This document shows, one piece after another, positions 310-20,832 of a stretch of 40,340 nt of DNA. The notes below the pieces were generated by a model. That model saw nothing but the letters and a program-made list of their open reading frames with translations, was not told the DNA's origin and searched no databases. Each line of letters starts with the position of its first letter. The first letter of the stretch is position 1. Origin of the DNA: a virus (lineage: Duplodnaviria; Heunggongvirae; Uroviricota; Caudoviricetes); IMG/VR virus record IMGVR_UViG_2872185964_000009; one strand, given 5' to 3'. Position numbers and translations under genes: made by a program.

Positions 310-699
310 TAAATTCCTGGCGGAAGTGCGTCAGCACACCTGGTCATCCGGTACCAACGGTGTGGTGGCTGCAACGTTCTCACTGCGTCTGAAAGGCAAA
401 CCGGTGTCCTTTGTGGTACCGCTGGCGTTTGTGAAAAATCTGGATAAGACACTTACCGTGAATACCGGTGCGCTGCTGACAATGTCAGTCAGTGCCAACG
501 GGGAATGCCGCCGTATAAATACGCCTGGAAGAAGGATGGTCAGCCGGTTGACGGGCAGACGACAGACACCTTCAGTAAGCCAGGTGCGCAGTCCGCTGAT
601 GCGGGGAAATATACCTGCGTGGTGACCGATTCGGCAGAGAAAGCACAGAGTGTGACGTCTGTTGAATGCACCGTGACAGTGAGCGCAGCTGCCGGATAA
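310..699 (+). pseudogene. Lambdoid major tail protein (gpV-like) 3' fragment with C-terminal Ig-like domain; 5' end removed by IS1, split over two frames near 500
   Basis: Ig-like C-terminus (..KYTCVVTDSAEKAQSVTSVECTVTVSAAAG) directly upstream of the G/G-T pair, as in lambda V; assignment by position and domain flavour only. Confidence 0.45.
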
Positions 700-713
700 G
701 GGGATGGGTCATC

Positions 714-1088
714 ATGAAAAAGGATCTGAAAACGCTGGCGCTGGCCAGACTGTCAGGGTTTCGTCATAAAACGGTGAAGGTGCCGGAATGGGGGAATGTC
801 AGCGTGGTGCTGCGGGAGCCTTCGGCAGAGGCCTGGTATCTGTGGCAGGAAGTGCTCAATGGTGATGGAGAGGATGACGATACCCTGTCGGTGGTGGCGA
901 AAACCCGCCGTAACCTGGAAGCGGATGTGACGCTGTTCTGCGATGTCCTGTGTGATACGGACCTGCAGCGGGTGTTCACTCCGGACGACCGTGAGCAGGT
1001 GCTGGCCGTCTATGGTCCGGTACATGCCCGGTTGCTGCGTCAGGCACTGGAACTGATCGCTGATGCAGAGTCGGCCAGAAAAAAGTAG
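714..1088 (+). CDS. Tail assembly chaperone (lambda gpG-like)
   Basis: ATG at 714 with AAGGGGA RBS; 124 aa; sits between major tail and tape measure genes; ends at a slippery heptamer followed by an open -1 frame. Confidence 0.7.
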   Translation: MKKDLKTLALARLSGFRHKTVKVPEWGNVSVVLREPSAEAWYLWQEVLNGDGEDDDTLSVVAKTRRNLEADVTLFCDVLCDTDLQRVFTPDDREQVLAVYGPVHARLLRQALELIADAESARKK

Positions 1089-1393
1089 CCCGCCCGGAAA
1101 TTCGCTTTCTGATGCGACTTGCGCTCCGTCTGGGGCGCACCTTATCCGAACTGCGCCACAGCCTGAGTGCGAGCGAGGCGATGATGTGGATGGAGTTCGA
1201 CAGGATATCCCCGCTGGGTGATGAGCGCGGGGATATCCGTAATGCACAGATCGTGAAAGCGGTTTTCGGGGCACAGGGGATGAATGTTGCACTGAAGGAC
1301 GTCATGCTCTGCTGGGGCGAGGATGAGGATAAGCCGGAGGTGGATCCGTTTGCGGCGCTGGAAGACGCGCTGAGCTTTGCAGCACAGTCATGA
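714..1393 (+). CDS. Tail assembly protein G-T fusion produced by -1 ribosomal frameshift (T-specific part 1085..1393)
   Basis: Frame 2 is open from the slippery site through 1393 (VARPEIRFLMRLALRLGR..AAQS); canonical lambdoid G/GT arrangement. Confidence 0.6.
1079..1085 (+). other. Programmed -1 frameshift slippery heptamer A_AAA_AAG at the 3' end of G
   Basis: Codons aga-aaa-aag-tag in G frame; X_XXY_YYZ heptamer immediately before the G stop; -1 frame continues into T. Confidence 0.6.
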
Positions 1394-1401
1394 ATGATGA
1401 G

Positions 1402-1422
1402 AACCGCTGAGGCGGTTTTTTT
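1402..1422 (+). terminator. Short hairpin (AACCGC-TGAG-GCGGTT) plus T7 tract between T and the next ORF; weak intrinsic terminator or attenuator
   Basis: 6-bp stem, 4-nt loop, followed by TTTTTTT. Confidence 0.25.
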
Positions 1423-1440
1423 ACGCCCGGAGAAAGGTGA

Positions 1441-1701
1441 ATGGCGACGTTACGTGAACTGATTATCAAAATTGTAAGCTTCCGGGGAACTCATATTGAC
1501 GCATTTTTCAGGCGCGCGTCATCGGCGGCGCATACGAACGCTCGTGGTTTGATAACGGTTGATTTATTTTGTTGCACAGAGGCGATCGCCAGGCAGGTAC
1601 CGGAGGCGGGCTCTGAAGTACTGAGTAGCGTGATCGCGTCAGGCCGCGAAGTACTGACTCGGGGATTAATTGCAGGTGATGATGTACTGACCCGGGAATG
1701 A
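1441..1701 (+). pseudogene. Possible N-terminal fragment of the tail tape measure gene, cut off by the IS66-family insertion
   Basis: ORF with RBS (GGAGAAAGG) directly after G-T; same frame (mod 3) as the tape-measure ORF that re-opens at 4195; no sequence-level proof. Confidence 0.3.
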
Positions 1702-1835
1702 CTCCGGGCTGATTCAGGTTCTTATTCGCTGTCAGCCCGCGTGGTTGCTGGTCTGGCTCATTTCCTGCCGTCAGGAGTTCAACTCCCGACTGCAGGTTAT
1801 GGCCCGGTGCACGAACACCTGACGGCAGGTATCAC

Positions 1836-3436
1836 TCACCCGGAGAAGGTAAATCCCTCAAGAGGCAGCAACTCTGCCAGTCGCTCCTCCGGCCACTCCG
1901 GCAGACGCATCAGGACGTCTGTCAACCAGGCATGCGGCTCCAGACCGTTGCGTTTCGCGGTTTCCAGCAAGCTCATTATTTGCGCGGCGCGTTCTCCCGC
2001 CATCTGCGAACCGGCGAACAGCCACGATTTTCTGCCCAGAACCACGTTTTTGATGGCCCGTTCACACACATTATTATCCAGCGGCACCGCACCATCTTCC
2101 AGGAAGCGGCTCAGTTCCACGCGATGAGACAGCGCATAGGCAATGGCTTTGTGTAATGCCTTTCCCGGAGAACATTGCGGTTCCTGCTCTTCAAGCCATG
2201 ACCACAGTTCTTCCAGTATCGGACGGGCATAACGCTGTCGCCACTGGCGGATTTTTTCCACGGGGCGGCTACTGATCTTCTTCTCAAGACGGTACAACCC
2301 GCGATTTTCTTCACGGCTATGGCAGCCCGTGGATCTTTACTGATTTTATACAGGTCGGCGAAGCCCCTGCGGGCATGGGCCCAGCATCCGGCCAGCGTGA
2401 TCTCCGGCACTTTGTTTGCCAGAGTCCGGTAAGCTTTATGTCCGTCGACAACCAGCGTCCCGCCCCAGCCCTGAAGCCAGTTTTCAGGATACTCATGGCT
2501 ACGTCCGGTCCGGCAGTCGAAGCACACAACTGACGGTCCCGTCCTTTCTCCACTGACGTATGCCCACAGATAACCGGAGCAGGATTTACCGCCTTTCTTC
2601 GTGTTCAGGATCTTCAGGGTAGTCTCATCTGCATGCACCACCGGACGGTTTATCAACTCGCGATGGAGTAACGCCGCCAGGGGAGATAATGCGGCACCCG
2701 CCGCGCCAACCATGTCAGCCATCGAACTGACGGGCAGCCCGACATCTGAACGGGCAAAGACCTGTTGCTGGCGATACAGAGGCAGGTGGTCACCGTATTT
2801 ATTGATGATCACCTGTGCGATGACTGATGGCTCAACGGCACTTTTCGGGAGGATATGTGCCGGCATTTCACCGCTGAACACCTTCTGGCAACAGGGACAA
2901 CTGTATTGCGGACGGACATAACGGTTCACCACAAAGTGAGCGGGAATATACTCCAGCTTTTCACTCACCGCATCGCGGATATAGTGCAGCGGCTCGTCAC
3001 ATTCAGGGCAATGGTCAGTGTCCGGCTGGATAATTTTTTCCACCCGTGGAAGATGAACCGGTAAGGGTTTGCGTATCGGGCGTGAACGGGACGCTTTTTC
3101 ATCTTCTTCAGGGGATTGCGGGAGCAGTTTATCCAGATGTGCGGTAAGCGCGGCGATATCGGCATCAACATCCTCTTCGAATAGGGAGCGTTGCATACCA
3201 GCCAGCGTTTCACATTTTTTTCCGAAGCGCTGTTGACGAACCAGTTTCAGCATTTCTTCCAGAAGCTGGATGCGCCGGCTTTTCTCCAGTAATTCCCGCT
3301 CTTTTTCGGCATTCTCCGACATGACTTCTTGTACCATGGCAAGTGCCATAGCACGCAGTTTTTCGATGTCATTCGTGGTGTTGAGAGCGGAGATATCCAT
3401 ACAGGGGAGTATACCACTCCAGATACGGATATTCAT
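1836..3436 (-). pseudogene. IS66-family transposase TnpC (orf3), frameshifted between 2111 and 2297
   Basis: 441-aa N-terminal ORF with CxxC zinc-finger region and DDE-like core plus 153-aa C-terminal ORF in another frame. Confidence 0.8.
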
Positions 3437-3442
3437 TATTTT

Positions 3443-19763: not shown

Positions 19764-19831
19764 AACACCCTCCTGTGGTGATGCTGCCAACTTACTGATT
19801 TAGTGTATGATGGTGTTTTTGAGGTGCTCCA

Positions 19832-20107
19832 GTGGCTTCTGTTTCTATCAGCTGTCCCTCCTGTTCAGCTACTGACGGGGTGGTGCGTAACGGCAAAAGC
19901 ACTGCCGGACATCAGCGCTATCTCTGCTCTCACTGCCGTAAAACATGGCAACTGCAGTTCACTTACACCGCTTCTCAACCCGGTACGCACCAGAAAATTA
20001 TTGATATGGCCATGAATGGCGTTGGATGCCGGGCAACTGCACGCATTATGGGCGTTAGCCTCAACACGATTTTACGTCACTTAAAAAACTCAGGCCGCAG
20101 TCGGTAA
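19832..20107 (+). CDS. insA: IS1 InsA
   Basis: 91-aa ORF, GTG start, identical to the InsA of the other intact copies. Confidence 0.95.
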
Positions 20108-20151
20108 CCTCGCGCATACAGCCGGGCAGTGACGTCATCGTCTGCGCGGAA

Positions 20152-20529
20152 ATGGACGAACAGTGGGGATACGTCGGGGCTAAATCGCGCCAGCGCTGGC
20201 TGTTTTACGCGTATGACAGGCTCCGGAAGACGGTTGTTGCGCACGTATTCGGTGAACGCACTATGGCGACGCAGGGGCGTCTTATGAGCTTGCTGTCACC
20301 CTTTGACGTGGTGATATGGATGACGGATGGCTGGCCACTGTATGAATCCCGCCTGAAGGGAAAGCTGCACGTAATCAGCAAGCGATATACGCAGCGAATT
20401 GAGCGGCATAACCTGAATCTGAGGCAGCACCTGGCACGGCTGGGACGGAAGTCGCTGTCGTTCTCAAAATCGGTGGAGCTGCATGACAAAGTCATCGGGC
20501 ATTATCTGAACATAAAACACTATCAATAA
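20152..20529 (+). CDS. insB: IS1 InsB reading frame (expressed as InsAB' by -1 frameshift)
   Basis: 125-aa ORF; carries the MATQGRL variant shared with the IS1 at 34499. Confidence 0.95.
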
Positions 20530-20553
20530 GTTGGAGTCATTACCCCCTCCTGT

Positions 20554-20573
20554 AACTGTAGTTATGTACAGGT
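20554..20573 (-). promoter_or_regulatory. LexA (SOS) box, CTGT-N8-ACAG
   Basis: aaCTGTagttatgtACAGgt; palindromic CTGT/ACAG arms with AT-rich 8-bp centre, 2 bp from the IS1 end. Confidence 0.65.
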
Positions 20574-20574
20574 G

Positions 20575-20607
20575 TTATTTTTATCTGTATGGATAACCAG
20601 TGTCAAT
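20575..20607 (-). promoter_or_regulatory. Sigma70-like promoter (TTGACA, 17-18 bp spacer, TAAAAAT) oriented toward the dinI-like gene but now separated from it by IS1
   Basis: Minus strand reads TTGACActggttatccatacagaTAAAAATaacaCCTGTACATAACTACAGtt. Confidence 0.45.
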
Positions 20608-20763
20608 TCCTGATATTGTTTATGGGGCATCAATGGGCATGTATGGGACACTTTTTATCGGCGAAATTCGTCGAAGTTCGTCGACATGGTAAACGAATCA
20701 TCTATCCAACCCTTGAAAAACGGCGCTCCTGGACGATCTTCGTCGATTTTTAAAAATGTTGCG

Positions 20764-20832
20764 TCACGCGCGTAACGTGACAGGGTTAATATCACAAAGC
20801 AACGCCACTTCACCAATTGTGTAAAGCGCCAT
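20764..20832 (-). pseudogene. mlrA: mlrA (yehV) 5' remnant: first 22 codons followed immediately by a stop; prophage junction (attR side)
   Basis: MALYTIGEVALLCDINPVTLRA matches the MlrA N-terminus, then diverges into phage-derived sequence. Confidence 0.7.

Follow-up and report, generated by a model that had tools for sequence, protein, structure and literature searches.

Right arm of a probable defective lambdoid prophage that interrupts mlrA in a Shigella boydii-like host

The viral record IMGVR_UViG_2872185964_000009 (40,340 nucleotides [nt]; hereafter, the window) very probably carries, between positions 310 and 20832, the right arm (tail genes and b region) of a defective lambdoid prophage whose right attachment site (attR) lies in codons 16 to 23 of mlrA (yehV). 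The chromosome that surrounds it is Shigella boydii-like and saturated with insertion sequences (ISs). As to its kind, the locus is ordinary and already known: the remains of a lambdoid prophage, riddled with ISs, at a site in mlrA that phages are known to use. The arm is that of a temperate siphovirus of a JLK-2012/lambda mosaic type, its attR end abutting mlrA nt 48 to 68, and four simple transpositions have hit it, bringing IS1 into V, an ISEc49-like element into H, IS1 into stf, and a further IS1 next to attR. Together with a loss of ∼200 nt from H, these insertions have destroyed the genes for the major tail protein, the tape measure protein, and the side tail fiber. In the history that we propose, the host, in turn, would no longer make MlrA and would lose MlrA-dependent activation of csgD.

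Homology to Escherichia coli K-12 begins at window position 20765, which corresponds to mlrA nt 68, and extends to 24284 through the start of mlrA, btsS (yehU), btsR (yehT), yehS, and part of yehR. The 21-bp attR core (20765..20785; CACGCGCGTAACGTGACAGGG) equals mlrA nt 48 to 68 and is identical to the annotated attL and attR of phage JLK-2012. The mlrA 5′ fragment itself (20764..20832, minus strand), which reads MALYTIGEVALLCDINPVTLRA on the reverse strand, consists of 22 codons followed by a stop that is completed by phage DNA. The phage/host junction is therefore placed at the att core inside mlrA, as in an mlrA-integrating prophage, and is base for base that of JLK-2012. The initial annotation, which had described a lambdoid tail arm in mlrA ending about 70 bp inside the gene, is confirmed on both counts. 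Site-specific integration into mlrA is well supported, because the core matches both attachment sites of JLK-2012 and because the left end of that phage record consists of mlrA nt 44 to 732 adjoining attL, int, and xis. Relatives of the window (labels L004 to L019) were found by exact-protein look-ups in complete Shigella genomes; L005 and L013 both come from CP049281.1, the genome of S. boydii isolate 600657, clade 2 (PMC7545283), and L006 is CP026866.1. The mlrA′-attR junction recurs in six complete Shigella-type genomes.

A search for the 3′ part of mlrA in the window and in all Shigella loci fetched did not find it; its one occurrence was in the JLK-2012 record. In L006 (CP026866.1; positions 13041-16400 of L006), an IS3-family element and then a partial IS66 come after the ISEc49 end of an interrupted H gene, and immediately next to these are the last 3 nt (the stop) of mlrA, yohO, and yehWXY-osmF. 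The 3′ part of mlrA can thus be lost in this Shigella lineage, since in this genome the deletion, next to IS66 copies, reaches the mlrA stop codon. The initial annotation had held that the lack of a matching mlrA 3′ fragment at the other boundary would refute its reading, an argument that fails in this Shigella lineage given this deletion and the IS1 at the window start, which is a rearrangement breakpoint (see below). For the same two reasons, the advised extension of the contig upstream may not reach attL.

The open reading frame (ORF) map of positions 1 to 21000 is fragmented, yet tblastn searches of the window with the tail proteins of JLK-2012 and lambda (E < 1e-5 for lambda) gave a complete, collinear tail arm on the plus strand. 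Within 310-20832 the order is V′-G-T-H-M-L-K-I-J-lom-stf-tfa, followed by a hexapeptide acetyltransferase gene, dinI, and attR. This map and the Pfam families assigned to window ORFs or to intact orthologues of relatives (Phage_TAC_1, Phage_tail_T, TMP_3/Phage_HK97_TLTM/Tape_meas_lam_C, Phage_min_tail, Phage_tail_L, Prok-JAB plus NLPC_P60, Lambda_tail_I, GpJ domains, Ail_Lom, phage_tail_N/Collar, and Caudo_TAP) identify a lambdoid siphovirus tail module with collinear gene order. V′ (310..696; tblastn match 311-696) represents the 3′ portion of the gene for the major tail protein; it matches amino acids (aa) 110 to 238 of JLK-2012 V at 95 to 100%, and the equivalent ORF of relatives contains an Ig-like domain (Pfam I-set/Ig_3). 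The next gene, G (714..1088), encodes the tail assembly chaperone (99% to JLK-2012 G; Phage_TAC_1, 1.7e-61), and T (1085..1393; stand-alone ORF 1112-1393) is the −1 frame extension giving G-T (98% to JLK-2012 T; Phage_tail_T, 1.3e-19). A slippery heptamer, A AAA AAG, occupies 1079-1085, directly 5′ of the G stop, and the −1 frame is open from this heptamer into the ATG of T at 1112. The signals expected of a programmed −1 frameshift from G to T are thus in place, and the predicted G/GT arrangement is conserved. The slippery site of lambda is G GGA AAG.

The rest of the plus-strand arm follows the same plan. The tape measure gene H begins with 11 codons (1441..1473), after which the alignment with JLK-2012 H resumes at 4237, and its remainder (4238..7254; tblastn) carries TMP_3 and Phage_HK97_TLTM. 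The tail tip assembly genes are M (7247-7587; 94% to JLK-2012; Phage_min_tail), L (7587-8284; 90 to 97%; Phage_tail_L), K (about 8295-9033; 45 to 66% per high-scoring segment pair [HSP]; Prok-JAB/NLPC_P60), and I (about 8932-9609; 90 to 100%; Lambda_tail_I), with the Pfam assignments taken from intact ORFs of relatives; taken together, their HSPs are 44 to 100% identical to JLK-2012 and 50 to 77% to lambda. J, the central tail fiber and host specificity gene (9849..13314), and lom, encoding an Ail/Lom outer membrane protein (13382..13978; Ail_Lom in the 199-aa ORF of relatives), were both mapped by tblastn. The side tail fiber gene stf is split by IS1 into 14129-15995 and 16763-18071 and carries phage_tail_N and Collar; it is 85% identical to lambda orf401, 66 to 78% to orf314, and collinear with the 1115-aa Stf of E. 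coli B19374. The tail fiber assembly gene tfa (18071..18642) is 69 to 89% identical to lambda Tfa and 89 to 100% to B19374 Tfa.

Four IS copies interrupt this arm: IS1 in V, an ISEc49-like element in H, IS1 in stf, and IS1 between dinI and attR. The initial annotation had named the first three, all of which have target duplications, and had passed over the fourth. In V, the window retains only the right end of an IS1 variant (1..309, plus strand; InsB C terminus), ∼90% identical to the other IS1 copies, which abuts V codon 110. Since L004 and L010 have a full IS1 between the 5′ and 3′ parts of V, flanked on both sides by the 9-bp duplication TAAATTCCT, this IS1 began as a simple insertion. The element in H (1474..4237, minus strand) follows codon 11, encodes tnpA, tnpB, and tnpC (Pfam DDE_Tnp_IS66 and zf-IS66), and is flanked by an 8-bp target duplication, TCAAAATT, at 1466-1473 and 4238-4245; this gene set, its GTAAGC-type ends, and the 8-bp duplication are those of the IS66 family. 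Over its full length it is 99.7% identical to copies annotated as ISEc49, and the same insertion in H is present in L004 to L011. The IS1 copies within the plus-strand stf (15996-16762) and next to attR (19777..20544, plus strand) were delimited by their ends and by 9-bp duplications, CAATTATGC and CCCTCCTGT, respectively. Both insertions are found in L013, L015, and L019, and the one adjoining attR is absent from E. coli B19374. The IS1 copies of the window show the hallmarks of this family (768 bp, terminal inverted repeats, insA/insB), with 9-bp target duplications at 15996-16762, 19777-20544, and 25115-25881; the copies at 24285 and 34499 lack a target duplication. Judged from their target duplications, the insertions in V, H, and stf are real transposition events.

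H has suffered a further loss, being ∼200 nt shorter near 5749-5952 than in L004 and L007 to L011. The same short form occurs in L005, from S. boydii 600657, in which H was not called as an ORF. No tail can be built from this arm, because V, H, and stf are all disrupted by ISs and H also by the ∼200-nt loss, and the element is therefore an immobile remnant. A functional, inducible prophage, possibly Shiga toxin (Stx)-converting, whose tail arm is merely decorated with ISs, would be compatible with the fact that many of the best phage matches are Stx-converting phages and with the choice of site. As the initial annotation had stated, mlrA does serve lambdoid and Stx phages; it is the integration site of Stx1 phages in O157:H7 (PMC8065619) and is listed with the E. 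coli genes that integrating prophages have disrupted (PMC3603311). A functional state is hardly credible, however, for a prophage whose V has lost codons 1 to 109 next to IS1, whose H is interrupted after codon 11 and internally shortened by ∼200 nt, and whose stf is split as well; nor does the window hold stx or an early region, and the DNA upstream of the IS1 in V is often unrelated chromosome among the relatives examined. The defective state of the element is thus the reading that we retain.

Apart from these insertions, most genes of the window appear to be frameshifted. Compared with related genomes, ∼40 single-base deletions were counted in window positions 1 to 30000, all of them in G/C runs of 3 to 7 (19 in 1-11374 and >20 in 9845-29969; for example, at 499, 2297, 7275, 10058, 13862, 18374, 21363, 22933, and 28776). 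The single exception is a 1-nt insertion, an A at 9848, at the end of an alignment. The apparent frameshift of V′ at 499 is such a G-run deletion, the break in tfa at 18374 is a C-run deletion, and every frame break in M, L, K, and I is a G/C-run deletion; others fall inside IS copies and in the host genes btsS and btsR, which are intact in relatives. Because the pattern is one-directional and restricted to homopolymers, we attribute the frameshifts to uncorrected errors of a long-read consensus, and they are almost certainly assembly or sequencing errors rather than decay. Were the frameshifts in H, L, K, I, J, lom, tfa, btsS, and btsR genuine, they would amount to massive pseudogenization of prophage and host genes, a reading that would fit the richness of Shigella genomes in pseudogenes and the fragmented ORF map. 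It is nonetheless very improbable, given that the changes, the A at 9848 aside, are single-base deletions in short G or C runs, that they also strike IS copies, and that the same genes are intact in all relatives. If carried into a downstream analysis of gene decay, the systematic homopolymer deletions of this assembly would yield false pseudogene calls.

By DNA similarity, the closest phages are lambdoid prophages of enterohemorrhagic and enteropathogenic E. coli, many of them Stx phages. The best phage match that reaches the mlrA end is JLK-2012 (∼93% over 55% of the query), that is, Marienburgvirus JLK2012, a prophage in mlrA of E. coli O55:H7 DEC5E. The two elements share the attachment site, the 21-bp att core, the right-end sequence from dinI to mlrA′, the gene order, and ∼81 to 100% protein identity in V, G, T, H, M, L, and I. 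In contrast, JLK-2012 is complete and carries the type III secretion system effector genes nleA and espV between its fiber genes and dinI, where the window has a lambda-type stf-tfa pair and the acetyltransferase gene, along with its four IS insertions; K and the C-terminal part of J are only 58 to 68% identical between the two. Lambda has the same tail gene order and the same G/GT −1 frameshift logic, and its L, K, I, J, Stf (orf401/orf314), and Tfa are 60 to 89% identical to the products of the window (M, 50%). On the other hand, V, G, and T have no BLAST match in lambda at E < 1e-5, and H matches at 27 to 37% in its C-terminal part only, the window-type H having 1080 aa versus 853 aa in lambda. 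The collinearity with lambda stated in the initial annotation therefore stands, as does the alignment of L, K, I, J, stf, and tfa with lambda proteins; its extension to most products does not reach V, G, and T and is weak for H. With Marienburgvirus JLK2012 as the best classified phage, the element falls outside the genus Lambdavirus in the strict sense, and the shaft module V-G-T-H is, by sequence, of the JLK-2012/HK97 type rather than the lambda type. The integration site of lambda is attB, which lies between gal and bio, rather than mlrA.

A second point of comparison is E. coli B19374 (NZ_CP142915.1), which has a lambdoid prophage in mlrA. The right end of this prophage is 98 to 99% identical to that of the window through the C-terminal part of stf, tfa, the acetyltransferase gene, dinI, attR, and mlrA′. 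This prophage differs in being essentially complete, in having a classical lambda-type V-G-T-H (H, 853 aa), and in the absence of ISs from its arm, a pattern of ordinary lambdoid mosaicism. The best E. coli match over the whole arm, NCCP15648, was considered as an mlrA prophage and rejected, as its element sits at the yecD/yecE side.

Near-identical copies of the locus exist in public Shigella genomes. The combination of IS1 in V and ISEc49 in H occurs in eight complete genomes, including CP000036.1, which we take to be S. boydii Sb227. Window positions 1 to 11374 are 99.75% identical to L005, and positions 9845 to 25114 are 99.6 to 99.7% identical to L013, L015, and L019. The mlrA remnants of CP049281.1, CP026762.1, and CP026814.1 resemble the window at 99.6 to 99.7% from J to yehF, including the IS1 in stf, the IS1 by attR, and the attR-mlrA′ junction, but differ from it at the K/I junction, in the I-J spacer, and at the 5′ end of J. 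The window has one IS1 (25115-25881) more than these three genomes. In CP049281.1, moreover, the shaft module with IS1 in V and ISEc49 in H lies at another locus than the mlrA remnant.

The IS1 in V marks one boundary of this rearranged landscape. Upstream of it, L004 and L010 have the 5′ part of V and a full head module, L005 and L006 have yedI and the fli-rcsA region, and L007 to L009 and L011 have a pocR-like regulator next to cob genes. Because the relatives present three different left flanks, this IS1 is likely a recombination breakpoint, and the head and early half therefore need not lie upstream of the window. Upstream extension by exact-protein look-up gave no match for the V′ fusion ORF, and the T protein matched in three upstream contexts.

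The other boundary appears to be J itself. In CP049281.1, locus A extends from IS1-V′ to J on the plus strand, with the start of J near 1,544,296, and locus B extends from J (1,377,267-1,380,740) to attR-mlrA′, with its tail genes on the minus strand; they belong to two separate prophages, inverted relative to each other and ∼164 kb apart. The comparison covers locus A up to J and locus B from K onward. The window is of the A type at the K/I junction, in the I-J spacer, and in the first 200 nt of J (in 9849-10043, 0 mismatches to L005 versus 13 to 15 to L013 and L015). The two loci agree with each other between 10055 and at least 11319, and the window goes on as B. One inversion within the two J genes reproduces the order of the window exactly. 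It is thus probable that two resident prophages recombined homologously within their J genes and so brought the V′-to-I and J-to-attR segments together, an inversion of ∼164 kb relative to S. boydii 600657.

Two other accounts of this join were weighed. The whole arm from V′ to attR might be that of one original mlrA prophage, with the window order ancestral and the two-locus split of S. boydii 600657 and others derived. Contiguous V-to-dinI arms of such a type do exist in E. coli (e.g., in NCCP15648 at its yecD/yecE-side site), and in CP026866.1 the IS66 end of the interrupted H adjoins yohO-yehWXY, the flank downstream of mlrA, which links the shaft module to the mlrA region. We regard an ancestral window order as rather unlikely, since L013, L015, and L019, the three closest right-arm genomes, are all of the B type at the K/I junction, in the I-J spacer, and at the 5′ end of J, since locus A possesses a full head module of its own elsewhere in CP026807.1 and CP026834.1, and since an A-type left joined to a B-type right is seen in the window only. 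Alternatively, an error-prone long-read assembly might have misjoined two nearly identical J genes, an idea suggested by the high and systematic homopolymer error rate of the window and by the identity of the two genes over >1.2 kb. Such a misjoin seems improbable: six 768-bp IS1 copies and nested IS elements were resolved in 40 kb, so that the reads must have been far longer than J (3.5 kb), and with A and B inverted in CP049281.1, a real inversion offers a simple explanation instead. We thus favor the account by recombination between the two J genes.

Between tfa and attR lie two genes on the minus strand. The first (18653..19198) encodes a 181-aa hexapeptide-repeat, CysE/WcaB-like acetyltransferase (Pfam Hexapep, 1.1e-13) and is a moron gene that separates tfa from dinI, with DNA of ∼42% G+C. 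Prophages of E. coli and Shigella widely carry this exact protein, which is annotated as serine acetyltransferase in those of E. coli; its NCBIfam matches (CysE/EpsC/WcaB-like) all score under the curated cutoffs and give no specific function or substrate. The second is a dinI-like gene (19515..19763; Pfam DinI, 1.5e-18) that has the same position in JLK-2012 and B19374. Searches with Pfam and NCBIfam found no toxin- or effector-like gene between tfa and attR, and an Rfam scan of the window found no RNA family at threshold.

Beyond attR, the host flank continues with the first 68 nt of mlrA and then btsS, btsR, and yehS. At 24285-28431, two IS1 copies and nested IS3-family elements stand where K-12 has the genes yehH to yehQ (∼14 kb) and parts of yehR and yehF, which the window lacks. 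The first of these IS1 copies (24285-25052) is the one without a target duplication; the second (25115-25881), which L013, L015, and L019 lack, is flanked by the duplication CAGAAGGAG. Farther on, within 34499-40340, the IS1 at 34499-35266 cuts the fimbrial chaperone gene yehC, and beyond it is found an IS66-family element with a nested IS110-like ISSso6, 99.7% identical to E. coli copies.

Some points weigh against the history proposed here. The left attachment site, int, and the 3′ part of mlrA fall outside the window, so that the complete integration geometry is not visible in it, and the J × J event may have run in either direction, with the window or CP049281.1 as the derived form. Curli genes are, besides, often defective in Shigella, and the loss of mlrA may therefore be without phenotype.

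For the host, production of MlrA would cease, since the gene keeps just its first 22 codons on the upstream side of the prophage. MlrA is an activator of csgD. The effect of MlrA loss on curli invoked in the initial annotation has a counterpart in the literature, a passage of PMC8065619 stating, with reference to Uhlich et al. 2013, that phage insertion in mlrA limits curli and biofilm formation in O157:H7; a literature search for mlrA prophages in Shigella gave nothing specific. As a tentative and somewhat doubtful extension, the IS-immobilized remnant might act as a permanent lock on mlrA, fixed across an S. boydii/S. dysenteriae lineage as a further pathoadaptive way of losing curli and biofilm regulation, and paralogous prophage tails might also drive large inversions, such as the ∼164-kb J × J event, that distinguish near-identical strains. 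Taken more soberly, the locus documents the interruption of mlrA by a dead prophage in this Shigella lineage, which matters little beyond annotation, and it offers an example of a chromosome rearranged by IS1 and by paralogous prophage genes.

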